In this document: positions 1 through 19,052 of the stretch, piece after piece
Numbering within the stretch: position 1 is the first letter of the stretch
Layout: every line of letters starts with the position of its first letter
Source of the DNA: Rickettsiales bacterium
GTDB lineage: Bacteria; Pseudomonadota; Alphaproteobacteria; Rickettsiales; UBA8987
DNA: 64,000 nt
NCBI GenBank assembly: GCA_965222525.1
Contig: OZ244955.1
Location: forward strand, 1,259,813 to 1,323,812
Reading direction: 5' to 3'
Translations under genes and position numbers: made by a program
The notes under the pieces: model-generated
Databases searched by the model: none
Seen by the model: the letters and a program-made list of their open reading frames with translations, nothing else
Told to the model about the DNA's origin: nothing

Positions 1-845
1 TCCCGTGTAACGCCGTGTATTTGCCCTACCTCTTCGAGAGTCTTCTTTCCTTTTCCATCCCATCCCCAGAATTGATACCAGGTTTCTTCGTAGCGTTTAT
101 TCTTGAACATGAAGAGTTTTAGCAGTGCTGCTAATTCACCTTCTACAGTATTGTCTTCATTCTGGAGTAGTTTTTCATATTCAGCAGCTAGCTCCTGCTT
201 GCGTGTAGACCTAATTTTCTCTCTGTTTTTCTCACGTAGCCCAGAAACCGTTTCTTGGTTCCAATCGGTAATCTTCATACCAAAGGATAAACCGAAGCGT
301 TTCAGCGCATCTTTCAGTTCTTGAACAGTCTTCTTACCACAACTTTGCCTGTGATAGAGGTCTTGCTCTTTCAGTTGAACCAATTCGCCGATCAAGTTGA
401 TATTATCTTCAGGTGCGATGTACCCGCCCGAAAGGTCGCCTAGGTCAAGCTCGTGATGGAATTGTTGCTTTTTGATGGGTTTAACTACATTCAAGGCCCT
501 GACTGAAAGCTTTAAATCTTCTACTGGTCTTAGAAGGGCAAGGTTGCTGCCTGATGCAATAGGCGGCTTTTCTGGCTTTGAATCAACAACAGCTTTTTTC
601 GGAAGTTTCAGGCCAGCAAACTCGTCTAATGCCTCTTCTATCTTTTTAACCGAGGTCCACCCTAGCCCGGGCAAGGTAACAAGCGAGCGTGGGTCTTTTT
701 TCAGTAAATCACCAATCGTATTTATTCCCAGGCTATTTAACCTTTTTATCAACGCAGGTGATATATCAAGCTCCGAAATAGGGACTTCATTGATATCGTC
801 TGCTTCGTGACAAGGTGCTTGCATTTGTATTGCTGCCTGTAACAT
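1..845 (-). CDS. Protein with two RNA polymerase alpha-CTD-like domains and a sigma-70 region 4 HTH (partial; runs off window start; absent from ORF track)
   Basis: Manual translation from ATG at 845: ...EVPISELDISPALIKRLNSLGINTIGDLL...LPGLGWTSVKKIEEAL...LRPVEDLKLSVRALN...IGELVQLKEQDL...CGKKTVQELKDALKRFGLSFGM...KKTLEEVGQIHGVTR. Open to position 1. Confidence 0.85.
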   Translation of the reverse strand, partial: MLQAAIQMQAPCHEADDINEVPISELDISPALIKRLNSLGINTIGDLLKKDPRSLVTLPGLGWTSVKKIEEALDEFAGLKLPKKAVVDSKPEKPPIASGSNLALLRPVEDLKLSVRALNVVKPIKKQQFHHELDLGDLSGGYIAPEDNINLIGELVQLKEQDLYHRQSCGKKTVQELKDALKRFGLSFGMKITDWNQETVSGLREKNREKIRSTRKQELAAEYEKLLQNEDNTVEGELAALLKLFMFKNKRYEETWYQFWGWDGKGKKTLEEVGQIHGVTR

Positions 846-860
846 GCTTCATTCTCTACC

Positions 861-2543
861 CTAGGCAGCATACAAAAATGCTGACTGGGTTGCTATCTCG
901 TTCATTTGACGCCCAATTTCCTGCAGAAAGTCAGTAAAGTCAGGAAAATACTCGTTGGACAACACGCGTTCAAACATTAGGGCATTAACATACTCAAAGA
1001 AAGCAACTTCGTAAAATAACCTTTTGAAAACTGGATCATCAACGTCTTCTTTATACGCTGCCGCAATTTGTGGATGGTCAAGATTCACCTTAATGGTTCT
1101 TTCCGACTGCACGTAACGTGTTCGCCACTCATCTTTGCCTAAATGTTCTGCCTTAACGTGGAATCCACCACGCGGCCTGTTCTTTTGCTGTCCACCACCT
1201 GGGTTAGCGGTAGTTGTGGGTTCGTCCTCATTTTTCTCAAGCCCCTGCTTAAGTTCAGGTGGCGGAGCGTCAGTTTCCGGTGTTGGTTCAGGCTTCTCGT
1301 CACCGACCCTATCTGGCAGTAAAGGTTCGCCTGTTTCAGACGCAGGGATAATGGTGCCAGGAACTAGGAAGCTATCATCGTCACCTTCGGTGCTATCCGG
1401 GTCATTTGGCACAACGTCAGCACCACCAGATGAGAGAGCTTTCTTTGATTTAATGAGTTCAGATCGAAATTGGTTGAAGTGCTTATTGATAACCTCACTA
1501 ACTTCTCCTTCGATTCGGCGAAACTTCTTAGCCTCTTCTGATTTACGCTCCTCTTTTTTGCGCCGAACTAATTCTTTTCTAATCTCTTCGACCGCACCAG
1601 AGATAAACCCATAAAGCATCCGTACTAATTGATTGCTGGCATTCAGTTGTCCACTGCGGGAAGAGTCAAATGCCGGGGGGTCTTCTTCCTTATCAAGGTT
1701 AGGGACTTCGATAGTTCCAAATATATATTCCGCACAGTCTTTGCCCTCACTTCCTGCCAAGGTTATTTCGTGTACTTGGTTTGAAGAAATGATTTTCACA
1801 CCTTGTTGATTGCTTTCAAGCGGAATACCAGAAACCTTTATGCAAAGAGTTACATTGCCGAGTAACTTTGCAACCTCGGGGTCTGGTGTGAAGTCTCTTT
1901 CAAAAGCTGCAGCGGGTTCTTGGTACTCACACTTTGAGCCATTAACATAGACACTACAGTTTGCGGGCCACCCAATTAGGTTTTGCTCAATGTAACCGAC
2001 GATCGGTTTTTCCTTAATCTTTTTGAAATCTTTGAAGAACTCAGTAATCGTGACTATTGTACGGTTTGGTTCCTTGGTTTTCTCATTCGTAACGATTTCA
2101 CTTACGGGGACTCCCTTATCTTTTCCTATATATGCCTTAACATCGTCCTTTTTCAGTTCTACCACGTTTCTTAGGCCGTTTCGTACGGTGTCAATCTGCA
2201 AGCTGTTGGCGATTGCGAAAGCAGCAGATTTTCCTGTTCCGAACATTCCACGGCCAATACGTCCTTGTTTGCGCTCAAGGTTTTCCGCGTGCATGGTAAA
2301 GAAGTGCTGTAGTCCAGCTCTATCCATCCCCATGCCATTATCAATGATCTCTATTTTGCTGGTGGTGATATTGACGTCTACCCTGGGGTTAACGCTGTTG
2401 TCTTGGTATTGGAGGCCATTCGCAACGTATTCCCATATTACATTCTTTGGGTGTTTAAAGCCCTCGGCGTTGTGTATGAGATCACGACATACATCGCTCT
2501 TTAACTCTATATGTGGCAGGGCCGCTGTATTGCTAGTTGCCAT
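861..2543 (-). CDS. GHKL (HATPase_c, MutL/MORC-like) ATPase
   Basis: N box WEYVANG, G1 DNGMGM, G2 GRGMFGTGKSAA, acidic/Pro-rich linker and C-terminal KVNLDHP. No nuclease motif recognised. Confidence 0.85.
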   Translation of the reverse strand: MATSNTAALPHIELKSDVCRDLIHNAEGFKHPKNVIWEYVANGLQYQDNSVNPRVDVNITTSKIEIIDNGMGMDRAGLQHFFTMHAENLERKQGRIGRGMFGTGKSAAFAIANSLQIDTVRNGLRNVVELKKDDVKAYIGKDKGVPVSEIVTNEKTKEPNRTIVTITEFFKDFKKIKEKPIVGYIEQNLIGWPANCSVYVNGSKCEYQEPAAAFERDFTPDPEVAKLLGNVTLCIKVSGIPLESNQQGVKIISSNQVHEITLAGSEGKDCAEYIFGTIEVPNLDKEEDPPAFDSSRSGQLNASNQLVRMLYGFISGAVEEIRKELVRRKKEERKSEEAKKFRRIEGEVSEVINKHFNQFRSELIKSKKALSSGGADVVPNDPDSTEGDDDSFLVPGTIIPASETGEPLLPDRVGDEKPEPTPETDAPPPELKQGLEKNEDEPTTTANPGGGQQKNRPRGGFHVKAEHLGKDEWRTRYVQSERTIKVNLDHPQIAAAYKEDVDDPVFKRLFYEVAFFEYVNALMFERVLSNEYFPDFTDFLQEIGRQMNEIATQSAFLYAA

Positions 2544-3126
2544 TCGCTTCCTCCTTAATCACTCTTTTTCCCAGTTCCTTTAGTGCATGGTGCGCGTCAT
2601 CACTGTTATCGAAGAGATTTTGGAACTGGGTTATTTTCTGTTCCCTAGCCTTACCTTGGATGTATTCGTTAATTCGGAACAAGTTTTCTAACTCTTTGCG
2701 TGTAATGCTATCTCCATTCCCGGAATGAAATTTTTGGTAGGCTGGCTCACCAAGAATTCGTTTCTTTTCCTTGTTGATCCAAGCCCTTTCCTTTTGTGAG
2801 AGCCTTGTTTCCTTGCTGCCTTCAGCCGTCAGTAGGTGCTTGTTTTCATCAACAAACTTAATTCCCTCTTCCGTCAGCATGTAGCCTTTTTCCGGAGTGC
2901 CAAGTGCTAAGCCACCTTTGTCCTCTTTCCTTGCATCAGATAGCCAACTAACAATTAACCGGTCAGAGATATAATCCCTTTTTCTCCAGCGGTATCTTCC
3001 GGGCACGATTTTATCCGCCTCTATAGCAATATCTTCTAGCTGCGCTTGCTGAGTTCGACCTCCTGCAACGTAGATTGCTAAAGCCATTATCTGGACATTG
3101 TTGAGGTCTTTGATACTAGCAGGCAT
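2533..3126 (-). CDS. Hypothetical protein with probable winged-helix domain
   Basis: 197 aa with a wing-like GYMLTEEGIKFV. Overlaps both neighbouring genes (translational coupling). Confidence 0.6.
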   Translation of the reverse strand: MPASIKDLNNVQIMALAIYVAGGRTQQAQLEDIAIEADKIVPGRYRWRKRDYISDRLIVSWLSDARKEDKGGLALGTPEKGYMLTEEGIKFVDENKHLLTAEGSKETRLSQKERAWINKEKKRILGEPAYQKFHSGNGDSITRKELENLFRINEYIQGKAREQKITQFQNLFDNSDDAHHALKELGKRVIKEEANGN

Positions 3127-3347
3127 TATTTTAACTCGAATTTTTTGTTTGATTGTTTAGTTGAGAAGCGCTGCTTGGACTTCCGTAATTCTTCTCCTAG
3201 CGTAGCGTAAATCTTCTCAATATCCTCGTTAGAGTAGTCGTAGTTTGACCTGTTTGAGAGGTTTCCGATAAGCTGTATATATTTCAGCGCGTTGTTCACA
3301 CGGTTGGTTGCAAGCCGGGTAAACTTATCTCTTGGGGTTTCCTTCAT
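3126..3347 (-). CDS. Small basic helical protein, first gene of operon, possible regulator
   Basis: 73 aa KFTRLATNRVNNALKYIQLIGNLSNRSNYDYS. GGA-type RBS upstream; TAATG overlap with next gene. Confidence 0.65.
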   Translation of the reverse strand: MKETPRDKFTRLATNRVNNALKYIQLIGNLSNRSNYDYSNEDIEKIYATLGEELRKSKQRFSTKQSNKKFELK

Positions 3348-3383
3348 AATTGATTATCCTGCTAAATAGATGTCGTATGGTGT

Positions 3384-3426
3384 AGGCTACGCAATAATAT
3401 TGTTCGTGTCAACGTAATATTGCGTA
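3384..3426 (-). promoter_or_regulatory. sigma70-like promoter overlapped by an inverted-repeat operator
   Basis: Minus strand TTGACA-17-TAGCCT. Arms TACGCAATA (3388-3396) and TATTGCGTA (3418-3426) lie between divergent genes. Confidence 0.5.
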
Positions 3427-3458
3427 CATTTATCAAATATAGGTAATATTATCAATAT

Positions 3459-4160
3459 ATGGACGAAAAATACAGAAATATAGCGATATTTAGGAAAAGA
3501 ATTCTGGCTTGGTACAGGGCTGAGGGTCGTATGTTTCCGTGGCGAGAACAGGCAAGAAGCGATTATGAAAAGATTGTGGCAGAGGTTCTACTACAGAGAA
3601 CCAAGGCCGAGACCGTTGCCAAGCATTACGGCGATTTTCTGCAAACCTTCCCCGATTGGAAGCACTTAGCGGATGCGCCGGAAGAGCATATCGAACAAGC
3701 CCTCAAACCCTTGGGCTTGTACAAGCAAAGGGCCGGGGTTTTTAAATGTCTCTCACAAGCCATCATGCAAATGGAAGGGAATACGCCTTCCAAGCGTGCC
3801 CATATAGATAAGCTCCCCGGGGTCGGGCAGTATATTGCCAATGCTGTAGAGTTGATTTGTCATGGCAAGCGAAGACCGCTTATAGATGTGAACATGGCTA
3901 GGGTGCTGGAGCGCGTATTTAGACCAAGAAAGCTCGTTGATATTCGGTATGACCCGTACTTACAGGAATTGTCAAAGAAGGTGGTAAACAGCCCGTATGC
4001 GCGGGAGATTAACTTTGCGATTCTGGATTTTGCAGCAAAGGTTTGTAAGTCGAAAAATCCTCGCTGTGAAATATGCCCATTTACGAGATATTGCAGTTGG
4101 TATAATCAGGCAAGCGCCACGGCAGCTTCTCTTGGAGGTGTAACTGAGAACGTGGTTTGA
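3459..4160 (+). CDS. HhH-GPD [4Fe-4S] DNA glycosylase, MIG-type (T:G mismatch)
   Basis: VLLQRT, HhH LPGVGQYIA with Tyr at the MIG-diagnostic position, FCL CKSKNPRCEICPFTRYC, no MutT-like C-domain. Adjacent to a C5 MTase. Confidence 0.75.
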   Translation: MDEKYRNIAIFRKRILAWYRAEGRMFPWREQARSDYEKIVAEVLLQRTKAETVAKHYGDFLQTFPDWKHLADAPEEHIEQALKPLGLYKQRAGVFKCLSQAIMQMEGNTPSKRAHIDKLPGVGQYIANAVELICHGKRRPLIDVNMARVLERVFRPRKLVDIRYDPYLQELSKKVVNSPYAREINFAILDFAAKVCKSKNPRCEICPFTRYCSWYNQASATAASLGGVTENVV

Positions 4161-5578
4161 TAGTTGTTTTCCTGGGTTGACGCGGTGGTGAATAGAATTT
4201 CCGCAATCTTTTCGCCAATGGCTTTAGCAAGTAAAGGTGGAACCGCATTACCAACTTGCGTGTACTGGGGAACCTCAAATTTGCGTCTGTTGCCACCAGT
4301 GGTCTCTTTCGAGCGAAAGACAAAAGTATCGGGAAAGGACTGTAGTCTAGCCATTTCCCTTATTGTCATGGTTCTCGGCTTTGCTGGGTGTACAAAGTCA
4401 TCCGGTAGGCTAAGCACAGTTGGGGAAGGACTACTCCAACTGAGGCAGCGTTGACTGTGTTTCTTCGTTTTTAACTCCAGAATTAACGTAGCCAGCTCCT
4501 CGGGAGTATGGGCAAGCACCTCCTTGTCCGGCGAGACTGCCGGGTAAGTGGCCTTTTCTAGTAAGCTAGTTATTTCCTCGGGTGAGATAGTATCTTTGGA
4601 GGCTAGGGTGATAATTTTTGAAGGCACTTCTTGCTTATCAAGATATTGTATTAGGCGAAAACGTTTCACGATTTTCTCTTCATGGTTCCTGAGCCGGTGA
4701 TTGGGTAATTTGCTGTTATCTCTGTTTTCAAACGGAAGATTTAGACCGGTAGTGTAATTCCTCATTAAGTAAGCAAACTCACCCTGAGCTGTTCCGTATT
4801 TCTTATGTTCTTGGTTGATGGTATAGCCCCGGTTTCCTATGTCCCACAGCGCATCACGCACAGTTCTAAAGTTTTGTAGTGCTGGGACAGGGGCAAGGAG
4901 TGGGCTTTTTGAAGCAACCTTTTCTTGTGCAAAGCTAGATTTCCAGAACATGGGAGCAGTTGAAATACCGGCCTTCCTCGCAACGTCCATCCTGACTGCT
5001 ACTAACATAACCCTAGGTCGGTTCTGAGGTATTCCAAAGTGAGCAGCATCAAGCTCCAGTGGCTGAACTGCATACCCGGGGGGGATTTCATGAATTGCTT
5101 GGATAAGCTGTTTTACAGGCGTCTCTATACCGTGCTTGGTAAACATTTTGCGGATGCCAACCACGTTCTCCATGATAACCGCCTTGGGGCGGACAGCTTG
5201 AACAAATTTAAGGAAAAGCCACGGTAGCTTGTTTCTTTCATCGTGAGGATCTCTCCTGCCTGCTACAGAAAACCCCTGACAAGGTGGGCCACCTGCAACA
5301 AGGTCTATTTCAGAACCTTTAAGTTTGTCCATAATTGCAGGGTTGGAAATAACCTGCTGTATGTCACTTACCATTAATTTTTGGGCAAATTGTTTTTCTG
5401 CTGAGAGCGATAAGAAGTTATCCCAGTCATCACTGTCTTGGATGGATCGAATAAAGTTGTGATAATACGTCTCTGCAGCCATGGGGGACTTCTCAACAGC
5501 AAGCTCAAGCTCAAAGCCTGCACTGGCCAAGCCAAGCGACAGTCCTCCACATCCAGCAAAAAGATCAATATATTTCAT
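4106..5578 (-). CDS. dcm: DNA (cytosine-5)-methyltransferase
   Basis: Motifs DLFAGCGG, GGPPCQGFS, ENV, PQNRPRV, QVGNAVPP. Confidence 0.95.
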   Translation of the reverse strand: MKYIDLFAGCGGLSLGLASAGFELELAVEKSPMAAETYYHNFIRSIQDSDDWDNFLSLSAEKQFAQKLMVSDIQQVISNPAIMDKLKGSEIDLVAGGPPCQGFSVAGRRDPHDERNKLPWLFLKFVQAVRPKAVIMENVVGIRKMFTKHGIETPVKQLIQAIHEIPPGYAVQPLELDAAHFGIPQNRPRVMLVAVRMDVARKAGISTAPMFWKSSFAQEKVASKSPLLAPVPALQNFRTVRDALWDIGNRGYTINQEHKKYGTAQGEFAYLMRNYTTGLNLPFENRDNSKLPNHRLRNHEEKIVKRFRLIQYLDKQEVPSKIITLASKDTISPEEITSLLEKATYPAVSPDKEVLAHTPEELATLILELKTKKHSQRCLSWSSPSPTVLSLPDDFVHPAKPRTMTIREMARLQSFPDTFVFRSKETTGGNRRKFEVPQYTQVGNAVPPLLAKAIGEKIAEILFTTASTQENNYQTTFSVTPPREAAVALA

Positions 5579-6296: not shown

Positions 6297-7532
6297 CTAT
6301 CCTGTATATGCTTCCTGTAGCTTCGAGAGGGCTTGATGTCCATCTCTCACCGGGTGGCTATAATACGAAAGCGTCACGCTGGGGTCTTTATGGCCAACGA
6401 TCTGTGCCACCAATGGCACCTCGATCCCCTGCGCTTGCAAGATGGAAACCACCGCGTGACGGGCGGCATGGGTGGTCGTGTATTTGACGCCATGCTCTGC
6501 TAATTTCTCAAAAGCCGGAACCCACACGCGCTGCCTGAAATTGCTGTACAGCAGCACACCTCCACCGACCTTCTTGATTGGCCATGGGCCTTTCGCACCT
6601 TGACTCGGGAATACCAATTCCAGATTTCCGTTGCGACGGGGGCAACGTACGCGCCATTCCAGAAGCCATTCACGCAACAGCGAGTTCATCGGGATGAGCC
6701 GGTCGCCTGATTCAGTCTTCGTGAACTCGCAGATTTTGCCATTCTTCTCCAAGGAGCGGTGGATATGGATCGTGTTGTCCTCGAAACTGATATCGTCCCA
6801 GTGCAGTGCCAACTGCTCGGAAATCCTCGTGCCGGTCAGGAATCCCCACGCGACGTACAGGCCCCATTTTGAATCCTCGCGCATGACACGGAGCACTGTG
6901 CTGATTTCATCGGGGGAGAGAATGACCTTCTTAGTCTTTGGCGGACTCTTGGTCAATCTACGGGGCATTTTGGGCGTCCGCACCCCGAGGTCTTCTTCCA
7001 CCATGCACAGGATAGCATGAAGCCGCTGCATGGCACGGTTAGCGGAGTAATGGCCGACATGCTCGATCAGCTCGTTATGCCAACTGCGAATCCGCGCCGT
7101 CGTTAGCTTGTTCACTTTGACGTTGCCAAGCATGGACTTCAGCGATGAACCATCCGGCATATCACCCGTAAGTGCGTATTCTCGCCGCTGACGCATATCC
7201 GCCCCGATCAGCAGGGGGCCGACCAAGTAGCTTCGGTAGGTAATCAACCCCTTGTAGGTGGTGGATTTGATGCTGTGCTTCTTGTTTTCTACCCAGTAAT
7301 CGTAACATTCCTCCAGCGTTGGAACCTGCTTCTCATCGCAGAGCGTACCCTGTTCCAATTCGATCATGATGCGCTTCTGCTCTGCAATGGCTTCCTTCTT
7401 TTTGCGGAAGTAGCTTTGCCTCCGCTTGCCAGTCTCCGGGTCGGGGTAATTGACGGCATACTGGACATATTTGCGGATGCTTCCGTCCTTCAGTTTTCGC
7501 TTCTTCTGCTGGGTTTGTATGGTGACGTTCAT
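6297..7532 (-). CDS. int: Tyrosine recombinase/phage integrase
   Basis: TGTRISE, HAARH, VGH and catalytic Tyr in YYSH; N-terminal arm-binding-like domain. Start at MNVTIQ after an AGAGGAG RBS. Confidence 0.92.
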   Translation of the reverse strand: MNVTIQTQQKKRKLKDGSIRKYVQYAVNYPDPETGKRRQSYFRKKKEAIAEQKRIMIELEQGTLCDEKQVPTLEECYDYWVENKKHSIKSTTYKGLITYRSYLVGPLLIGADMRQRREYALTGDMPDGSSLKSMLGNVKVNKLTTARIRSWHNELIEHVGHYSANRAMQRLHAILCMVEEDLGVRTPKMPRRLTKSPPKTKKVILSPDEISTVLRVMREDSKWGLYVAWGFLTGTRISEQLALHWDDISFEDNTIHIHRSLEKNGKICEFTKTESGDRLIPMNSLLREWLLEWRVRCPRRNGNLELVFPSQGAKGPWPIKKVGGGVLLYSNFRQRVWVPAFEKLAEHGVKYTTTHAARHAVVSILQAQGIEVPLVAQIVGHKDPSVTLSYYSHPVRDGHQALSKLQEAYTG

Positions 7533-7809
7533 AATTGATTCTCCTCTCTGGTTAACGCCAGCCTGAACGCAGGCCAACATCCCAGAAAATCACAGCGAAA
7601 ATCTCCACACAATATTGGACGTGCAACCCTTATTGTAGACGCAAAAGTAGACGGACAGGGCCAGATAGGAGAAAAGCCCCGTCCGTCTTGACAGAAACGC
7701 CACTGGGCGAAGGTGACGTTCACATGCTTATGCTTCTGTATCTCAATACCTCGGTGTTCGAGTCTAAAAGTATTCATGTTTCTCATTCCATTATTCCGGC
7801 GTTAATTCC

Positions 7810-8035
7810 TGAAAATTTTAATTTTTAAAACGAGCTTAAAAGCCTAAAAGTTTAAAAATCCGAGCTGTCATTTTGTCACGTCACGTCAGCCCTCTTTGAG
7901 GGAACCCGTTAGCCTAACTCTGACTGCTTTTTTTCGTTTCCATACAATCCACATGGGAAGAAAGTGAGAAATGGGTAGCGCTGGCCTCGGATTTGCTCAT
8001 AACCCTATGACGTGACATGACATCGTGACGGTCAC
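7810..8035. other. Putative replication origin with iteron-like repeats
   Basis: AT-rich tract, then GTCACGTCACGTCA and an inverted TGACGTGACATGACATCGTGAC array at the 3' end of the primase-helicase gene. Confidence 0.45.
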
Positions 8036-10395
8036 ATCCCTTCGTAATCCATCTTCACATAATCATTGGAAAGATGAGATGCAGGTAACCATATTGCTAA
8101 TGAACGTACGCTGCCGGAGAAGCGCTTTTGTTTCTCTTTTCTGGCTCCCTGCACCCGCTGCAAGGCGCTTACCCATGCACCGCCATCCCACAGGGTATCT
8201 TTAAATATTTTTCTGATACCCGGGTGAGAATTGGCGACAAGAAACCCGTCACCTGTCCAACGAATACCCCAGTCTTCCAACTCATTTTTGATGAAAGTAT
8301 AGTCTTCCCCGTTTGGGTGAGCCTCGTATTTAATCATTGCGAGATTCGCGCCTACACTACGATCACTGATGCGGTGGCCAAGAAGCATATTCAGGCATTC
8401 CACGGCATCATCTTCTTCATGGGCTTCCGCCAATTCATTGATAAGTGCAGTATGTTCGCCAAGCAGCTCGTGGCCATCTTCCTCGGTCATTTCCCTCTGG
8501 TGAAGCATTACCCATGCTGCTGCCATAAGAGAAGCCATATTCAATGCATGACGGCTCTCGCAGGGAGGAAATACGCGTTGCAGAGTTTTGATAGCTTTCA
8601 GTATGTAATCCGTATTTTTAATAACCTGCTTGCACCAATTAGGCCCGACATCATCCAACGCATGACTCATTTCAGCAATGCGACTGCTGACAGTCTTATC
8701 GTTGGCGTGTTTGTGGAGTTTTAAAACCACGATACGCGAGCGGTCTGCAGCCGTTACCATAAAGGGGTTGATTGCACCCATGAGAAAACAGGAGCGAATA
8801 CAGAATTCCATGGCCTTTCCGTCCGGCGTTCCGCGAGCAATACTGTATTTAGCAGAAGAAGCGCTACGAATGAGCTTGATGACGGATTTCATCCTACCGA
8901 CATTCTGGTCGCTTTCAAATTCATCCAGAATAACGGGACGGCTATCCGGCCCGGTTTTCTGTCGAATGCCAGCCTCTGTGCTTTGACCATCAAGGGCAAT
9001 GCCGACCGGTTCGAGTAGGTTCATCAACGCTAGGATGATCGTAGTTTTACCTGCGTTCTTGGGGCCGCTGATGAAGATATGTGGCCTCCAATCCACCACC
9101 CCGCAAATGACCGCAAGGGCCGCCCAACCAAGCAGCAAATATGCTTCAGAAGGTGAACTCCAGTTGAATTGCTGGAAAAGTTCGAGGACTATTTTGGCAT
9201 CTATATCCGCCTCCTTTTCCCCTCGTGCCTCCAGCGGAAGATGACATACATAAATATACTTTGAATCCTGTGGTGGTTTATCGCCCCAGTTGATTACGAT
9301 TGCGCGGTTACTATCCATCCATACGCCGCGCCCGCGCACTCTTGAGGTGTCAAAACCACCCTTGCTACGACATAACTGCATCATGCTGTCCGCTGCATCC
9401 CGGCAATCTATGCCGATGATTTGGCCTTTCATATTTCGCTTTGGGAAGTTGGTGAGCCAAAAGTGCATGGGAGCCATGTTCAGTAGCGTGCCTTCTGTCA
9501 TGAGACGATTGGAGCTTTCCACCAAGAGCAGCGAGCGCATTTGATCGAGAAATACGTATCGTCCATCTTCCAGATAGCCAAGTGGTAGTGGCCCAGTATC
9601 ATCCGGAGCGTATTCCCCGCGTGATTTCAGGCCAAGCCCCTTTTCCTTAGCGCTTTCGAGCATCTCCAAGGTTTCTTCGGCGGTATTTCCCTTGTAGTCC
9701 TGGTGAAAAAGCGCGTTGAGGCAGTCTGCCACCCATTTAAGATCATCAGTAATATGGGCGATCCCTGAAGCAGTCAGGGCCAGCATTAACTCATGCCCCT
9801 TGACGGTTGCTCCACTTTCAACAATTTCCCATGCGGCTTCGTATTTTACGACACGCTTGATTAGCTCGTATACGACAGCATCCAGAACCGGCAGGTTGTT
9901 TTGCTCAATATCCAACAGGGGAGTTTCGTCCCAAACATACGCATTGCCATTTGGATGAATCGAAGGGGGAATGACGATCATCCCGGTGTCTATCATCATC
10001 TCCACACCGAAGGCTTTCTGGCCTTTGGCTTTCAACTTAGCACTTTTGAGTCCGTTATCCGCCTGACAGAAAGCGGTAAGTCCCTTGCTACCAATTTTTC
10101 CTGAAACGTAGTTACGAAGTACGGTTTTGATGAATTCGGAGAATCCGGGGTGATCGACATCTATAGCAGAAAACAATCTGCCGTTTCTCAAACGGGTGCC
10201 CGTGGCAAGGCCAATATTGCCCGCACCATATTTTTGTTTCAGCGCGTCAATATACTCTTCGCTTGGAAGTTCAGGGACATGCTTGTTCCAATCAGGATTA
10301 GCCGCTCCTTTTGCTTTCTTACGAACGGCGACAGGACTATAACCAGCTTCAATATAAGCATCTGCCCAGTCTTCATATATGCGTTGTGCTACCAT
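8032..10395 (-). CDS. Bifunctional primase/polymerase fused to a P-loop helicase
   Basis: GNIGLATG, IDVD, IPPSIHPNG..YVW (Prim-Pol); Walker A GPKNAGKT and Walker B VILDEFE. Confidence 0.88.
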   Translation of the reverse strand: MVAQRIYEDWADAYIEAGYSPVAVRKKAKGAANPDWNKHVPELPSEEYIDALKQKYGAGNIGLATGTRLRNGRLFSAIDVDHPGFSEFIKTVLRNYVSGKIGSKGLTAFCQADNGLKSAKLKAKGQKAFGVEMMIDTGMIVIPPSIHPNGNAYVWDETPLLDIEQNNLPVLDAVVYELIKRVVKYEAAWEIVESGATVKGHELMLALTASGIAHITDDLKWVADCLNALFHQDYKGNTAEETLEMLESAKEKGLGLKSRGEYAPDDTGPLPLGYLEDGRYVFLDQMRSLLLVESSNRLMTEGTLLNMAPMHFWLTNFPKRNMKGQIIGIDCRDAADSMMQLCRSKGGFDTSRVRGRGVWMDSNRAIVINWGDKPPQDSKYIYVCHLPLEARGEKEADIDAKIVLELFQQFNWSSPSEAYLLLGWAALAVICGVVDWRPHIFISGPKNAGKTTIILALMNLLEPVGIALDGQSTEAGIRQKTGPDSRPVILDEFESDQNVGRMKSVIKLIRSASSAKYSIARGTPDGKAMEFCIRSCFLMGAINPFMVTAADRSRIVVLKLHKHANDKTVSSRIAEMSHALDDVGPNWCKQVIKNTDYILKAIKTLQRVFPPCESRHALNMASLMAAAWVMLHQREMTEEDGHELLGEHTALINELAEAHEEDDAVECLNMLLGHRISDRSVGANLAMIKYEAHPNGEDYTFIKNELEDWGIRWTGDGFLVANSHPGIRKIFKDTLWDGGAWVSALQRVQGARKEKQKRFSGSVRSLAIWLPASHLSNDYVKMDYEGM

Positions 10396-10412
10396 GATAA
10401 ATCTCCGGGTAT

Positions 10413-10613
10413 TTATGATTGTTGCATTGCCTTGAGGATGTCCGAGCGCCGGACATACTTCTTGGCATTGAGTAATGAGTAAGTGGGAATCAACCCGGCA
10501 TTGGCCGCTCGGCGTATTTTCCAAGCGGGCAAGCCTAATTGTTCTGCCGCTTCGTCATAGGTCAGCAGCGACTCAGGCTGATCGCGTTGGTGGTTGTTTG
10601 GATTTTCGTTCAT
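10413..10613 (-). CDS. Excisionase-like HTH protein
   Basis: LLTYDEAAEQLGLPAWKIRRAANAGLIP...YVRRSDI. Confidence 0.85.
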   Translation of the reverse strand: MNENPNNHQRDQPESLLTYDEAAEQLGLPAWKIRRAANAGLIPTYSLLNAKKYVRRSDILKAMQQS

Positions 10614-10712
10614 CGCACATTCTCCATTCTTGTTTCGAATCGTCAGCAGGGCCGACAATTCAGAATGTGTGATAACCGGGTGTAAAAAGCCCGGCACCCC
10701 CAGGGGTATATG

Positions 10713-11516
10713 TTAGGCTGGTATCAATTCTTCTTGCAAAACAGGAGGAAGAGTGTCGGCTATAATCAACGGGTGTTGTAACATCTCTCGAATTTTCTTC
10801 TGGCTAATCTGCGTGTAGGTTGTTTTCAAATCGTCAATTGGAACTTCCTTTTCCTTACAGAGGGGTTCTTTCACCTTCTTTGTTTGCAGCATCCGGCTAA
10901 ACCATTCCGCCGGGTATGGTTTGAAAGGGGGAATTTTTCCTTTCGTAATGTCAAGGCATAGTCTTGCCAGCGCGAATTCCGCTTCGGCACGGTCTTCCTG
11001 TTTCAAGGAGGGGGAATGCTCGTGAATCCAGTGCGCGTACCAATGCATCTGAATCAGCATGCTGTTGTCGCGCAGGCCCGCTACTGCCTGCTCAAATTTT
11101 TTCTCAGAGGTATCATCAAACGCAATGAGTTCCGCGTAACGTCCAGCCAGAAAATTGAAATGTGACAATGCTGACAGGAATTCCGTTGTTACTTCGCGCT
11201 TTTTAAGACCTTCGATCACGATTTCACGATAATCAGGAATAGGTTCTTTGAAATGGTCAGGAATATGTTGTCGGATATCCTCCATAAACCCAAGCTCAAC
11301 GGCTAAATCCAGTAGCTTCTCATAGCGCCCATCCCCTTGGATATGAACGGTATAGGCATAGTTAATTTTGTCCTGATAGGGGCTTTTCACCTGCCCATAG
11401 GTCAGTAAGTTAAGCTTGAAACGCTCGAAATCTTCCGGCGTAGGAACCTCAAACCACTCCACGAGTTCGCAGATATTGGTGAATTCTTCTTCGATTTTTT
11501 CCCAGTCGATGGCCAT
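10713..11516 (-). CDS. Hypothetical protein
   Basis: Long ORF; likely start MAIDWEK after a GGGGAA RBS. No family recognised. Confidence 0.6.
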   Translation of the reverse strand: MAIDWEKIEEEFTNICELVEWFEVPTPEDFERFKLNLLTYGQVKSPYQDKINYAYTVHIQGDGRYEKLLDLAVELGFMEDIRQHIPDHFKEPIPDYREIVIEGLKKREVTTEFLSALSHFNFLAGRYAELIAFDDTSEKKFEQAVAGLRDNSMLIQMHWYAHWIHEHSPSLKQEDRAEAEFALARLCLDITKGKIPPFKPYPAEWFSRMLQTKKVKEPLCKEKEVPIDDLKTTYTQISQKKIREMLQHPLIIADTLPPVLQEELIPA

Positions 11517-11730
11517 GAATACGCATTCCCCTGATTTTTTGTCAACATAGCCAGAATTTGCCTGAAAAACAGTCATTTTCTTGCTTTTCTGCCCTTCCGA
11601 ACGTCCCAAGTGCGTGGTATTATGAAATGGTACGGTCGCGGGAATGCGGCCCCATTTCCCTATCATGATTGTTAGCTGCCCTACCGCAGGTGAATTCCGG
11701 CGGTGGGTATTTGTGCTCTGGAGGTTGCGT

Positions 11731-13023
11731 ATGACCAAACCATTACACATAGAAAACAGGCTTGTTTCCGGCCTTAAACCCTATGAGAAGAACAGTAAAA
11801 TTCACGATAAGAAGCAGGTGAAACAGATCGCCGCATCGATTAAGGAGTTTGGCTTCAATGTGCCTATCCTGATTGATGGCGACAATAATATCATTGCCGG
11901 GCATGGCCGCGTGCTGGCCTGTAAGGAGTTAGGCATCGAGGAAGTCTCGGCCATCTGTGTCGAGCATCTGACGGATGCCCAGAAACGCGCCTTTGTCATT
12001 GCCGACAACAAACTTGCGGAGAATGCCGAGTGGGATACGGAAATGCTTGCGCTCGAACTCAAGGAACTGGGGAGCCTGGATTTGAGCTTCGATTTGGACA
12101 TCACCGGTTTTTCCACCAGTGACATCGATCTGATTATCAGCGATGATATCTCGACGGACGAAGAGGACGGCACCTCAGATGAAGAACTGCCGGATATGGC
12201 GGATGTGCCGATGGTTGCCGCATTCGGTGACATTTGGCAACTCGGCAGGCATAAACTGATCTGCGGCGACTCACGGGATGCCAAAACGTATGAACGCCTG
12301 CTGGGTGAGCGCAAGGCGGATATGGCACTGGCCGATCCGCCCTATAATGTGCCAATCGGTGGTTATGTCTTAAAAGACAGAAAACCTCGCCATACGGAAT
12401 TTGCCATGGCCTCCGGCGAGATGAGCAACGAGGAATTCACGGAATTTCTATCCGCTATTTTCGGCAACCTAGCGGCTTTCAGCAAGAACGGTTCCATCCA
12501 TTATATTTTCATGAACTGGCGGCATATGTATGAACTGCTGACTGCCGGGCAAAAGCATTACAAGGAACTCAAGAATTTGTGCGTATGGAACAAAACTAAC
12601 GCCGGGCTCGGCGCTTTCTACCGCAACAAACATGAACTTATTTTCGTGTTCAAGAACGGCAGCAAGCCGCACATCAATAATTTTGAGATGGGCGACCATG
12701 GCCGGTTCCGTACCAATATCTGGGACTATCCTTCCAGCAGCAGTTTTTACAAAGACGCTGTTACCGGTGAAACCAGGGATCAGCTCATCAAGCTGCATCC
12801 TACGTTGTGCCCGGTGCAAATGCTGGTGGATATGATGATGGATTGCTCAAAACGCAACCAACTGATTCTTGATCCGTTCTGCGGTAGCGGCCCATCGCTG
12901 ATTGCCGCCGAGAAAACGGGAAGGTGCTGCCATGCCATCGAATACGAGCCTAAATTTGTCGATGCGGCGATTTATCGCTGGGAAAAGTTCCCCGGTGAGA
13001 AGGCTATTAAAGCGCTTTCCTGA
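11731..13023 (+). CDS. ParB-like N-terminal domain fused to N4/N6 DNA methyltransferase
   Basis: IAASIKEFGF..PILID...IAGHGR (ParB); DPPYN and LDPFCGSG (MTase). GGAGG RBS. Confidence 0.9.
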   Translation: MTKPLHIENRLVSGLKPYEKNSKIHDKKQVKQIAASIKEFGFNVPILIDGDNNIIAGHGRVLACKELGIEEVSAICVEHLTDAQKRAFVIADNKLAENAEWDTEMLALELKELGSLDLSFDLDITGFSTSDIDLIISDDISTDEEDGTSDEELPDMADVPMVAAFGDIWQLGRHKLICGDSRDAKTYERLLGERKADMALADPPYNVPIGGYVLKDRKPRHTEFAMASGEMSNEEFTEFLSAIFGNLAAFSKNGSIHYIFMNWRHMYELLTAGQKHYKELKNLCVWNKTNAGLGAFYRNKHELIFVFKNGSKPHINNFEMGDHGRFRTNIWDYPSSSSFYKDAVTGETRDQLIKLHPTLCPVQMLVDMMMDCSKRNQLILDPFCGSGPSLIAAEKTGRCCHAIEYEPKFVDAAIYRWEKFPGEKAIKALS

Positions 13024-13648
13024 AGGTGAGGTTAATGCGCTGGCTACCAAGAAGCGGATGCTCGCCATCTTTCAGCGGAGCAATGCCATGGTAGACAAGG
13101 CGGGATTCGCCACCGAAGACGAAAACATCGCCGTGATGCAGTGGAATTTTTTTGGTTTTGTCGGAACGTTCCAAGCCGCCGAATAAAAAGGTGGCGGGCA
13201 AGCCCAGTGAAACGGAAATGATAGGGTGACTAAAGTCTTTTTCATCGCCGTCCTGATGCAGGGAAAGCTTTGTCCCTGGCTCGTAGCGGTTGATAATGCA
13301 GACATCGGGTGCGAATCCATGATAGCCAACTTCTTTCGCCGCTTGTATGGCTATATCCGAAAGCAGCACTGGCATCTGCGGCCATGGTTTGCCCGTTTCC
13401 GGATCAAGCGTTTCATACCGGTAGCCAGATTTGTCGGAAACCCATCCCATGTTGCCGCAGCTTGTGATGCCAATAGACATGTATCGTCCATTCGGCGTAA
13501 GCATGCGCCGAAACGGTGAAACCGCCTCAATCTGCTTTATGGCAGCAAATATTTCGGCGGCATCGTCCAACGCATACCCTTCCAGCAATACCGCGCCGGG
13601 GGTAATTTGGATGGTACGTTTTTCATCGGCAAAAAGTGTCTGAGTCAT
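13007..13648 (-). CDS. alkB: Alpha-ketoglutarate-dependent oxidative demethylase AlkB
   Basis: GWVSDKSGYRY, INRYEPG, LHQD, YHGI, RINLTFR. Confidence 0.93.
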   Translation of the reverse strand: MTQTLFADEKRTIQITPGAVLLEGYALDDAAEIFAAIKQIEAVSPFRRMLTPNGRYMSIGITSCGNMGWVSDKSGYRYETLDPETGKPWPQMPVLLSDIAIQAAKEVGYHGFAPDVCIINRYEPGTKLSLHQDGDEKDFSHPIISVSLGLPATFLFGGLERSDKTKKIPLHHGDVFVFGGESRLVYHGIAPLKDGEHPLLGSQRINLTFRKAL

Positions 13649-13689
13649 AAACCATTTATAACAAACAAAACCATTTTATGGAGGATAAT

Positions 13690-14136
13690 ATGCCCAGAAA
13701 AAAGAAAGAAACCGAAAAGATCGACGAGGCCAGCATACTGGAACAGTTGCTTCAGGAATTGGAAGAAGAGATCGACGCCAAGGAAGGCAAGGTCAGTCGG
13801 AAAATGACCAAGGGTCAGGCGCTCATCAAGAGCATGGTCAATGAAGCCCTAAAAGGCGATCAGCGAATGATGACCAATGTATTGAAGTTTATCGAGAAGC
13901 TGGATGCACTACAATCGGCCAAGAAAGAGGAAACTGCCGCTGATAATCAGGAACTGGATAAGGTCGATTGGGAAATAATGTTACGGTATTATTGGCGATA
14001 TCGGCATCATCTGGAGTTAGAATGGGAGCGGATGAAGAAGGAAAATCCTGGCGCGTTCAAGGGGGAGTGGACACGAATCGATATGAAAGATGCGCCATGG
14101 TACGAGGCAATTTACGGCTCTGAAGGAGCTGACTAG
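13690..14136 (+). CDS. DUF5681-like protein (N-terminal motif apparently missing)
   Basis: RKMTKGQALIKSMVNEALKGDQR resembles genes that usually follow the ParB-MTase in alphaproteobacterial satellite-like elements. Confidence 0.55.
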   Translation: MPRKKKETEKIDEASILEQLLQELEEEIDAKEGKVSRKMTKGQALIKSMVNEALKGDQRMMTNVLKFIEKLDALQSAKKEETAADNQELDKVDWEIMLRYYWRYRHHLELEWERMKKENPGAFKGEWTRIDMKDAPWYEAIYGSEGAD

Positions 14137-14924
14137 GCGGCGAAATAGCGTTTTCCATAGCCGTGTACGACATTGACGATGTTCTTGCCTTCCACCTGAT
14201 TGCCGCCGCATAACCCGCAGGTCACACATTTGGCGCGCCGGTTTGTCAGATCATGGGCCGGGCAGAGGATTTCTCCCTCGGTAATCTCCGACAACTCCTT
14301 GGCCACGCGGAAAGTACGCCAGCCTTTCTTCCAAGCTTCCTGCGCCTCCTCCAGCGTGTCGGCGGAAAACATGTAGAGGTCGGTACGGTACTCAACATTG
14401 CCGAGATCAGTGAAATGGCTGTAGCCAGTATAGCCTGCTGCTTCCGAAATCAGGCTATCCCAGATATAAGAAGGTACGGCAGCAGGATCACCATATGCGC
14501 CCAACCGGACTTTCCTATCCCTACCAATGGCGGCCAGTTCACCGTGTCCCTTCGCTACCGGGTATTTCCCGGCCTTATAACCGCGCCAAATCGTCAATGG
14601 CGCATTGCGGACGAGTACATAGCAGGTACGATTCCTAGCACTCTGCGCTTTCGGGTTTTCAACAGGCTCCCCTTTTAGCTTGCAATTTCCGCAGATGGAA
14701 TAATCTTCACCGGAGCGGTTCGCCGTTACCGGGTCGATATCCTCCCGCAGGACGAAGGTCTGTACCATGTCACCGGTCTTGATGTTCTGCGAGTGATGAA
14801 TGGCAATGACGATAATCGGCTTGCCGTCAATCAGTGACGGCCCGTTGAAAATCAGGCTTCCCGTCGTCTTGGCTGCCTTGCCGTTTGGCTTGGTAATTTC
14901 TTGATTGAACAGGTCTTTTTGCAT
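14133..14924 (-). CDS. Cys-rich phage-type protein (putative Fe-S, Gp88-like)
   Basis: NIKTGDMVQT, SICGNC, CYV, RLGAYGDP, GYSH, ILCPA, CVTCGLCGG. Confidence 0.6.
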   Translation of the reverse strand: MQKDLFNQEITKPNGKAAKTTGSLIFNGPSLIDGKPIIVIAIHHSQNIKTGDMVQTFVLREDIDPVTANRSGEDYSICGNCKLKGEPVENPKAQSARNRTCYVLVRNAPLTIWRGYKAGKYPVAKGHGELAAIGRDRKVRLGAYGDPAAVPSYIWDSLISEAAGYTGYSHFTDLGNVEYRTDLYMFSADTLEEAQEAWKKGWRTFRVAKELSEITEGEILCPAHDLTNRRAKCVTCGLCGGNQVEGKNIVNVVHGYGKRYFAA

Positions 14925-14956
14925 ACACGCAAAAGTCACAGAAAAGCGTATTCCTG

Positions 14957-15158
14957 TCAATCTATTGTGAGATTACTTTCGTGATCTACGCCACGTCTAC
15001 AGTTCTTGGCCTATCACCCGATACAAACGAATGATACCAAGTTCACCCGGTTACGTTCCACAGCAAATGTCATACGCCGTTTTCCACGCCATAGCAGGCG
15101 GTAATGAGGTGGAATCTACGATAACTGCTTGCAATGGATGAACATCCGGATTAGCACT
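14957..15158 (-). pseudogene. Degenerate, 5'-truncated copy of the ORF at 17834-18187
   Basis: Reads LIRMFIHCKQLS*IPP...**AKNCRRGVDHESNLTID with in-frame stops; cut at the att site. Confidence 0.65.
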
Positions 15159-15203
15159 CTCCGAAGGCGGGGGTCGTGGGTTCGAATCCCGCCGGGTCCG
15201 CCA
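15159..15203 (+). tRNA. 3' fragment of tRNA-Arg(CCG), island att site (not a complete tRNA)
   Basis: CTCCGAAGGCGGGGGTCGTGGGTTCGAATCCCGCCGGGTCCGCCA: anticodon loop, T arm and CCA end. No D arm or 5' acceptor strand upstream. Confidence 0.85.
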
Positions 15204-18526: not shown

Positions 18527-18982
18527 TCAATAATTTCTTCCCACGTTTTTCCGTTTCTTCTGAAATATTCTACTGTTGGTCCGTATTCCTTCCTCGTTGA
18601 AGGCAAAACCAGAAGCGATAATGCTATTATACACCTGTGTAATACCGGTTTCATTGGCGTGATCGGCGAATAACCTTCCGACCGCTTGCATGTTCGGAAA
18701 TGCCTGAGAGGCGGTTGGAAAATGATCGCGTGTTGTCAAGACAGCAGCAAAAGGAAGCACGAAATCTGTCTCAGCAATTCTTTGACGGAAATATGTTGAG
18801 TTTCGGTAATAGCGAGTGGCAATATCAATGTCTCTGACTTCCTTGCCGAGCAGTGCATCCCGCACACATCCACCGATAAACCGCGCCTGAACATCCTCAC
18901 CGCCATCATGCAGCGCATCCATAACCCGCACAGTCTCCACCGTACTCATCCACTCCTGCTGTTTTATTTTCTTGGGTTTCAT
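18527..18982 (-). pseudogene. cca: N-terminal fragment of CCA-adding enzyme fused to unrelated sequence
   Basis: ARFIGGCVRDALLGKEVRDIDIAT; similarity stops at ~18815. Confidence 0.75.
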
Positions 18983-19052
18983 GGCCTGATTCATAATTGG
19001 CCATCATACTAGAAGCATTTTGATAAAAATCAATGGTGAGGTGCTACTAAAC

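Follow-up and report, generated by a model that had tools for sequence, protein, structure and literature searches.

A GHKL ATPase operon beside a methylase–glycosylase gene pair on a tRNA-integrated island: one candidate defense system or two modules?

At the left end of a genomic island in a Rickettsiales bacterium, an operon for a GHKL ATPase and a protein built of RNA polymerase parts lies next to a gene pair for a C5 cytosine DNA methyltransferase and a mismatch glycosylase (assembly GCA_965222525.1, contig OZ244955.1, positions 1,259,813 to 1,323,812; this whole stretch of 64,000 nucleotides (nt) is called the window, and positions are counted from its first letter). Do these six genes form one system, or do two modules share an island? 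A first-pass annotation of the DNA favored the former, reading the genes as a single self/non-self defense system based on 5-methylcytosine (5mC), possibly a new variant, with an effector that might lie left of the window. Here, we argue that the island carries two separable modules, which is likely although not proven: module A, comprising the genes for a 73-amino-acid (aa) protein, a 197-aa protein (P197), the ATPase and the polymerase-like protein (which we call BIG), and module B, comprising the methylase and the glycosylase. As to their functions, we give an even chance to the reading that module A is an undescribed, nuclease-free, MORC-like conflict module and that the methylase and glycosylase are a separate pair of the dcm-vsr type. 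A methylase and a repair gene beside an ATPase operon need not be one system, and recognizing this corrects a tempting over-reading.

The operon runs on the minus strand and opens with the 73-aa gene (3126-3347), followed by the genes for P197 (2533-3126), the GHKL ATPase (861-2543; 560 aa; Pfam HATPase_c_3) and BIG (3-845, the first 281 codons, open at the window edge). BIG combines C-terminal domains of the RNA polymerase alpha subunit (alpha-CTDs) with sigma region 4, as recognized by Pfam and by profile comparison with the PDB. Packing is tight: the 73-aa and P197 genes overlap by 1 nt, the P197 and ATPase genes by 11 nt, and a 15-nt spacer precedes BIG. Across a divergent intergenic region (3348-3458, read from the sequence), a MIG-type HhH-GPD/[4Fe-4S] mismatch glycosylase (3459-4160, plus strand; 233 aa; Pfam HhH-GPD and EndIII_4Fe-2S) is encoded convergently with the C5 cytosine DNA methyltransferase (4106-5578, minus strand; 490 aa; Pfam DNA_methylase, 198.8 bits), the two genes overlapping by 55 nt (4106-4160). 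The six open reading frames (ORFs), their coordinates, coupling and overlap are as the first-pass annotation had placed them, and its calls of a GHKL ATPase, alpha-CTD, sigma region 4, HhH-GPD glycosylase and C5 methylase agree with Pfam, NCBIfam and PADLOC. The divergent intergenic region contains an imperfect inverted repeat (about 3389-3428) that could serve as an operator; a scan of promoters and terminators gave no excess over shuffled sequences (promoters 6 versus 8.3).

To see left of position 1, we used a stretch with 15 kb upstream of the window and its own numbering (L002). The whole BIG gene has 726 codons (L002 13665-15845) and extends 1,335 nt to the left of the window, with its stop codon 5 nt from a tRNA-Arg(CCG) gene. 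Beyond this tRNA gene lie housekeeping genes, namely those for a DUF4177 protein, a CCA-adding-type nucleotidyltransferase, tRNA-Gly and an aminotransferase. The suggested effector is thus absent from the upstream DNA, which holds the rest of BIG, the tRNA gene and housekeeping genes; nor does it hold a standard restriction-modification (RM) or Mza locus that could account for the operon.

Conservation of the genes across related loci

Whether the six genes belong together can be judged from their co-occurrence elsewhere. A scan of one genome per species yielded 142 loci related to the operon, the best 80 of which were used for all locus counts. These span more than 10 phyla, including Acidobacteriota, Chloroflexota, Planctomycetota, Verrucomicrobiota, Pseudomonadota, Actinomycetota, Bacillota and Myxococcota. 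Presence was scored with tblastn, using the six window proteins as queries and counting a methylase within 9 kb. All 80 loci encode the ATPase, 71 encode BIG, 71 encode P197 and 64 encode all three, as against seven with the 73-aa protein, four with a C5 methylase and none with the glycosylase. Among the 16 incomplete loci, 14 lie on short or end-cut contigs or have a truncated ATPase gene; this leaves L032 and L034, whose flanks are complete. All-against-all clustering of 1,262 ORFs called in the related loci gave the same picture: only three clusters are widely conserved (P197, the ATPase and BIG), with otherwise unrelated flanks, and no nuclease is part of the gene set conserved across the 80 loci. 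The usual order is P197, ATPase, BIG, although BIG lies upstream or divergently in about a dozen loci.

The core trio occurs in 64 of the 80 loci versus four for the methylase and none for the glycosylase; the test of joint conservation therefore failed, and the reading of the six genes as one 5mC-based system is not supported. From the proposal of a new defense variant, the ATPase operon is retained as an undescribed candidate conflict system, while its unity with the methylase and glycosylase is given up.

Cooperation between the two modules is nevertheless conceivable: the methylase would mark self, and BIG and the ATPase would act on unmarked DNA, with the link being facultative or the methylase being encoded elsewhere in most genomes. 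The two modules are adjacent and divergent in the window, and the four loci with a methylase have suggestive company, as Vsr is also encoded in three of them (L031, L042 and L081) and an Eco29kI-like nuclease in the fourth (L075). In a quick maximum-likelihood tree of 61 ATPases, L031, L075 and L081 fall into one alphaproteobacterial clade of five (approximate likelihood ratio test (aLRT) support 100). In addition, MORC and paraMORC operons often hold cytosine methylases and Vsr, according to parts of an earlier survey (PMC2292703), and the N-terminal domain of the ATPase resembles restriction enzymes of the BbrUII/HgiDII type (NF050001, 7e-16). That match, however, is limited to residues 35-185 and reaches 57.8 bits against a cut-off of 550. 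Moreover, 76 of the 80 loci lack a C5 methylase within 9 kb, the glycosylase is found in none, no nuclease was found, and no PADLOC candidate system is matched by any of the four operon proteins. The clade of methylase loci may also count for less than it seems: L031, L075 and L081 share flanking clusters, relaxase and coupling-protein genes are found in L031 and L081, respectively, and these three may be one element family rather than independent cases. Finally, the window ATPase pairs in the tree with that of L061 (aLRT 99, on long branches), a locus with an integrase and a NYN gene and no methylase; a metagenome scan for closer relatives of the window ATPase returned only seven remote GHKL matches. 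Taken together, we consider such cooperation unlikely.

We now turn to the methylase and glycosylase as a pair of their own. The methylase matches the dcm family (TIGR00675) at 155 bits against a cut-off of 100.65 and PADLOC MTase_II at 1e-86, and its PCQ and ENV motifs can be read intact in the translation. For the glycosylase, the best PDB match is 1KEA (4e-34, residues 8-219 of 233, 212 residues), deposited as a 'possible G-T mismatches repair enzyme', with MutY behind at 2e-29. The protein has the Cys4 iron-sulfur motif and, at 233 aa, comes without the C-terminal domain of MutY. PADLOC PDLC03398, a model of 221 residues named 'Type II nicking endonuclease', also matches it over its full length (4e-37). 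A search for orthologs in 400 genomes of the phylum returned only MutY-like matches with 28-36% identity (one of them from G383, flagged as unpublished).

Methanothermobacter has a pair consisting of a methylase and the Mig glycosylase. As in dcm-vsr pairs, a C5 methylase here adjoins a putative dedicated T:G mismatch repair enzyme, which in this case is a glycosylase instead of the Vsr endonuclease. Unlike both dcm-vsr and methylase-Mig pairs, the genes are convergent with a 55-nt overlap and have no cognate restriction enzyme. We regard the two genes as a dcm-vsr-type pair, whose separateness from the ATPase operon is likely but not proven. In such a pair, the methylase would mark DNA and the glycosylase would take T out of the T:G mismatches that arise from 5mC deamination. 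Module B would act independently of the operon and would probably protect the element against restriction when it enters new hosts. A second methylase, in which ParB_N is fused to an N6/N4 methylase domain, is encoded on the same island (11644-13023, plus strand; 459 aa; Pfam; PADLOC MTase_II 1.3e-85).

The proteins of the conserved trio

The ATPase, present in all 80 loci, has hundreds of full-length relatives of around 550 aa with 40-51% identity (51% and 49% for the two closest), none of which is informatively named. Pfam recognizes HATPase_c_3 at 47 bits, and an alignment of 20 sequences has the invariant residues E38, N42, G70, G72, G97-G104 and K105, with D68 being nearly invariant. T162 and K236 are also invariant, and we infer that these correspond to motif IV and the transducer lysine, respectively. 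As judged from the alignment, the ATP site is intact. The predicted model (mean predicted local distance difference test (pLDDT) 78) consists of an ATPase/transducer module (residues 16-330), a single helix of 68 residues (305-372) described as a coiled coil, a disordered linker (373-458) and a C-terminal domain (460-560). Fold comparisons with VIA and Foldseek rest on such predicted models, and absence from a VIA list is not taken as exclusion. VIA ranks MORC3 first (Z 22.2, root-mean-square deviation (rmsd) 3.0, 283 aligned positions, residues 16-326), followed by MORC2 (21.6), SMCHD1 (19.7), GRP94 (18.8) and MutL (17.6), and Foldseek returns MORC and TRAP1 at 1e-13 to 1e-14. In the model, the ATPase/transducer fold is MORC-like.

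The C-terminal domain (window 861-1163) resembles zincin/YbeY-like folds to a moderate degree (VIA: AQ_1354 Z 8.5, YbeY 7.3, SPRTN 7.2, Wss1 6.3). None of the 20 sequences has an HExxH or H-x3-H-x5-H metal site in this domain; its most conserved helix reads Y-E-x-x-F-x-E-Y, without the His pair, and its polar residues are invariant at many positions (R474, Y477, N487, H490, E512 and E517). The predicted domain could be a relic without catalytic activity or else have an unusual site. A search of the Atlas with this domain returned only unannotated clusters, and no fused longer forms of the ATPase were found at E<=1e-20, which is weak evidence. A complex prediction for the ATPase and P197 scored 0.01, which counts neither for nor against binding.

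BIG is a chain of DNA-reading modules without an enzyme domain. Its model (pLDDT 85) contains alpha-CTD 1 (residues 16-85), alpha-CTD 2 (97-206), sigma70 region 4 (about 250-300), tandem winged helices (about 300-590), a B3-like barrel (606-695) and an acidic tail. Pfam recognizes RNA_pol_A_CTD (PF03118) at 71-75 bits and Sigma70_r4 (PF04545) at 26.4 bits against a cut-off of 24.1. A profile built from 35 BIG sequences, which were also used to assess conservation, matches alpha-CTD at 3e-20 and, at 1e-16, region 4 of numerous primary sigma factors in the PDB. The second alpha-CTD (97-203) superimposes on that of Escherichia coli (Z 13.4, rmsd 1.0 Å, 73 aligned residues, 45% identical), and the first (11-85) reaches a Z of about 11 (VIA). 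Aligned with E. coli alpha, BIG keeps the Arg of a 'VRS' stretch and a 'GKK' turn, whose Arg and Lys we take to be R265 and K298, the DNA-contact residues of the E. coli alpha-CTD. A low-confidence insert of 25 residues (BIG 123-147, window 405-479) sits between the first helix and the helix-hairpin-helix of alpha-CTD 2, outside the superimposed part; it is absent from both the host RpoA and E. coli alpha.

Within region 4, Q286 is one of just three invariant columns in the 35 sequences, and R281, E282, R283 and R285 are nearly invariant. The recognition-helix stretch TLEEVG..VTRERIRQI is identical to that of the host RpoD. The residues of this helix presumably read the -35 hexamer, and no stretch of the BIG family is more conserved in the alignment than this recognition helix. 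The winged-helix part resembles the winged-helix arrays of SelB, UFL1/DDRGK1, Dcc1 and ESCRT-II (Foldseek), and residues 606-695 resemble plant B3 domains, with VAL1 at Z 8.9 (rmsd 2.7, 89 aligned; VIA) and template modeling (TM) scores of 0.66 for 1yel and 0.60 for FUS3 (Foldseek). One BIG relative gave a match to RE_NgoFVII_C at 2.9e-4, below the cut-off of that family. The number of alpha-CTD copies varies: of 62 BIG proteins, 22 have one copy, 27 two, 9 three and 1 five, while 3 have none that could be detected. Fourteen long or short variants contain no enzyme domain; their extras are further alpha-CTDs or a B3-like insert.

P197 is the constant upstream partner of the ATPase, and its family is large: of 1.84 billion cluster representatives, 1,086 match at E<=1e-3, and the best 150 relatives listed are almost all stand-alone proteins of about 190-210 aa. 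P197 has no family match in Pfam, NCBIfam, PADLOC or PHROGs, its best PDB profile match has an E of 0.15, an hhalign comparison with BIG gave nothing, and the Atlas holds only unannotated clusters. The winged helix-turn-helix label that this protein had been given was thus not borne out by any of these tools.

The gene ahead of P197 differs between lineages. The 73-aa protein, without a match in Pfam, NCBIfam, PADLOC or PHROGs, has homologs upstream of P197 in seven of 71 loci by jackhmmer (seven of 80 by tblastn) and is a lineage-specific accessory. In four loci, a gene of about 133 aa for a PIN domain lies directly upstream of P197 (L010 7975-8373, L011 555-956, L022 7983-8387 and L033 7986-8396; assigned by Pfam in the first three and by ORF cluster only in L033), a lineage-specific accessory different from the 73-aa gene of the window.

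The possible role of module A and the island that carries it

P197, the ATPase and BIG are a widespread, unnamed and undescribed three-gene family; full-text literature searches found no description of the gene set. Uncultured phyla of soil and sediment commonly carry the family, whereas model organisms almost never do, and it has therefore escaped study. If module A acts in conflicts, BIG would dock on promoter-like, A/T-rich DNA and recruit the ATPase, which would dimerize on ATP binding, as MORC does, and clamp or compact the DNA. Incoming DNA clamped in this way would be blocked in transcription or replication, and P197 might serve as an adaptor or regulator.

How the family is distributed bears on this proposal. 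It is very patchy: a sample of 400 further genomes of the class contained the ATPase family only once, yet it spans more than 10 phyla. The flanks of the module are not conserved, and some copies are degraded or interrupted. Neighbors were surveyed in two sets, the first covering, on each side of 24 loci, the three closest ORFs with a length of 110 aa or more (125 ORFs; L007, a near-copy of L004 and L006, was left out, and L009 has no flanks) and the second covering the two nearest ORFs per side in 32 further loci (128 ORFs). By our own reading of Pfam and PADLOC matches, 11 of the 24 and 14 of the 32 loci, 25 of 56 in all, have a defense-type or mobile-element-type neighbor, a proportion that comes without a matched control and is suggestive only. 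These neighbors include type I and II RM, Cas1, GmrSD, DUF4238, dCTP-deaminase-like, PIN, Mrr_N, PycTM, a Schlafen-type helicase, a PLD-helicase, transposases and integrases. In a Pyrinomonadales locus (L021 3837-19601), the triad is located between HmaA and HmaB/HmaC of the Hma defense system. In a related genome, the gene immediately upstream of the triad encodes a PLD-helicase (L047 2106-5495).

Several observations weigh against our main reading. In the remaining 31 of 56 loci, all neighbors surveyed are housekeeping or unannotated genes. In three closely related Chloroflexota loci, P197 is immediately preceded, on the same strand, by ParA-ParB genes (L004 6641-8330, L006 6666-8343 and L007 6636-8331, assigned by ORF cluster in L007), which fits a chromosome-organizing role as well. 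The ATPase family was found neither in 50,697 phage records nor in the IMG/VR scan, and the only match in 72,556 plasmid records is partial and located on a 1.3-Mb Rhizobium replicon; there is therefore no direct tie to phage biology. The proposed mechanism leaves unexplained how self promoters are spared, and the ATPase's C-terminal domain might be a cryptic hydrolase, in which case 'nuclease-free' would be wrong. Lastly, methylase adjacency recurs, here and in four of the 80 loci, so the independence of the two modules is likely rather than proven.

Some of these points suggest that module A may not be immune at all, and that it might organize DNA or regulate transcription on behalf of the chromosome or the carrier element, for instance as a MORC-like helper in compaction or partition or as a promoter-occluding regulator. 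Such a role would suit a set of proteins in which every identifiable domain binds DNA or hydrolyzes ATP and no effector is present, as well as the promoter-recognition nature of sigma region 4 and alpha-CTDs and the ParA-ParB and neutral neighborhoods just described. It sits less well with the patchy distribution, the unconserved flanks and degraded copies, the location on an island in the present genome and the RM, Cas1, GmrSD, Hma, PycTM and Schlafen-type neighbors elsewhere, all of which are hallmarks of accessory conflict genes and not of housekeeping organizers. We hold this explanation to be improbable.

Staying with a conflict module, BIG could also work as bait. Phage take-over proteins bind or modify the alpha-CTD and sigma region 4 of RNA polymerase. 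BIG resembles both closely, with alpha-CTD 2 being 45% identical to that of E. coli and the region 4 recognition helix identical to that of the host RpoD. As a polymerase mimic, BIG might offer decoy copies of these domains that are engaged by a phage factor, or that compete for early phage promoters, upon which the MORC-like ATPase would clamp or silence the invading DNA without cutting it. We consider this version very unlikely; if true, it would be a bacterial immune system made of decoy copies of the transcription machinery.

The operon and the methylase pair form the left end of an element of 16,776 bp (a 16.8-kb island) that is integrated in a tRNA gene, as indicated by a split tRNA target and an integrase. 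The 5′ half of a tRNA-Arg lies at L002 13343-13383, about 200 bp upstream of the intact tRNA-Arg(CCG) gene (L002 13583-13659), which itself lies about 200 bp inside the left end of the island. At the other end, a 17-nt exact copy of the tRNA anticodon region is found at window position 15159, from where a diverged tRNA 3′ half continues to the CCA at 15203; this part of the host tRNA-Arg(CCG) gene, its 3′ half moved away by the insertion, constitutes attR (15159-15203, plus strand) and marks the right end of the island. When the 5′ and 3′ remnants are joined by coordinates, ARAGORN calls a valid tRNA-Arg(ccg). The element was therefore inserted in the anticodon loop of the host gene, with CTCCGAAGG as the insertion core, and brought its own intact tRNA-Arg(CCG). 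A plain attR repeat of the tRNA 3′ end was looked for and not found at up to 3 mismatches; the att core is located in the anticodon loop instead.

From left to right, the island encodes BIG, the ATPase, P197, the 73-aa protein, the glycosylase, the C5 methylase, a 119-aa membrane-like ORF, a tyrosine recombinase (6297-7580, minus strand; Pfam Phage_integrase, 69.8 bits), an 830-aa Prim-Pol/primase protein (8032-10524, minus strand; Pfam Prim-Pol; PHROG DNA primase 3.6e-72), a 345-aa ORF, the ParB_N-N6/N4 methylase, an AlkB-like oxygenase, a DUF5681 protein and a 275-aa ORF. The integrase is thus placed in the middle of the element and not at its edge. The AlkB-like gene, in the rest of the island (8032-14960), is of the 2-oxoglutarate-Fe(II) oxygenase type, the 275-aa ORF matches only phrog_2554, a phage family of unknown function (2.8e-58), and the 119-aa and 345-aa ORFs have no family match. 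As the first-pass annotation had noted for its part of the sequence, no Z1, AIPR, PD-(D/E)XK or restriction nuclease gene is present: Pfam, PADLOC and PHROGs recognize no restriction nuclease family in any island ORF, with the 119-, 345- and 275-aa ORFs being without an informative match. The GC content of the operon (45.2% versus 46.2% for the genome) is unremarkable. A look through sequencing runs turned up four DNA runs, all of one study, and listed no RNA run. Outside the island, a 155-aa ORF (18527-18994) matches the PolyA_pol head domain over its first 25 positions only and could represent a piece of a second nucleotidyltransferase gene.

Comparison with known systems

Against the named and candidate systems of PADLOC-DB v2.0.0, P197 and the 73-aa protein gave no matches, the ATPase matched only REase_II and BIG only PglW. 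Two further systems with superficially similar parts were set aside: CapK/CapS, described in part of PMC13373217 as a small anti-sigma-type kinase with a STAS partner, is unrelated, and VcSduA, described in part of PMC12137116, joins a GHKL domain to a DUF4263 nuclease, a domain that is not found here. A type II RM system is likewise not apparent, as the island ORFs include no cognate endonuclease family. Restriction enzymes of the BbrUII/HgiDII type have the N-terminal GHKL domain in common with the window ATPase (NF050001, 7.4e-16; PADLOC REase_II 8e-4 and 4e-3). Only the ATPase domain matches, at a score far below the family cut-off, the rest of the protein being unrelated, and the ATPase family described here is without a methylase link in 76 of 80 loci.

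Mza (mzaABCDE) pairs an ATPase of the MutL/GHKL type with mzaA, called 'a sigma factor' in PMC9523054. Z1 and AIPR genes belong to Mza, while Pfam and PADLOC find neither on the island; the ATPase scores 16.8 bits against the MzaB model NF041932 (cut-off 850), and no PADLOC Mza match appears at E<=0.01.

The closest relatives in kind are MORC and paraMORC; the survey of these ATPases (Iyer, Abhiman & Aravind 2008, PMC2292703) places MORC and paraMORC1-5 in the company of helicases, nucleases, DCM and VSR and nowhere uses the term 'sigma'. Both there and here, a GHKL site is followed by an S5-type transducer, with MORC3 and MORC2 being the best fold matches of the window ATPase, and both show a patchy lateral spread, with occasional Dcm and Vsr neighbors in the loci described here. 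The differences lie in the partners and in the remainder of the protein. A conserved neighborhood of superfamily 2 (SF2) helicases, nucleases or methylases, as in MORC/paraMORC, is not found here: the conserved partners are P197 and BIG, not SF2 helicases or nucleases, and 76 of 80 loci lack a methylase. The ATPase itself has, in addition, a coiled coil and, at its C terminus, a zincin/YbeY-like domain. If module A does serve in defense or silencing, a bacterial MORC-type ATPase would work without a nuclease, helicase or methylase and would be aimed by a reader protein composed of the promoter-recognition domains of RNA polymerase, in close parallel to MORC gene silencing in eukaryotes.

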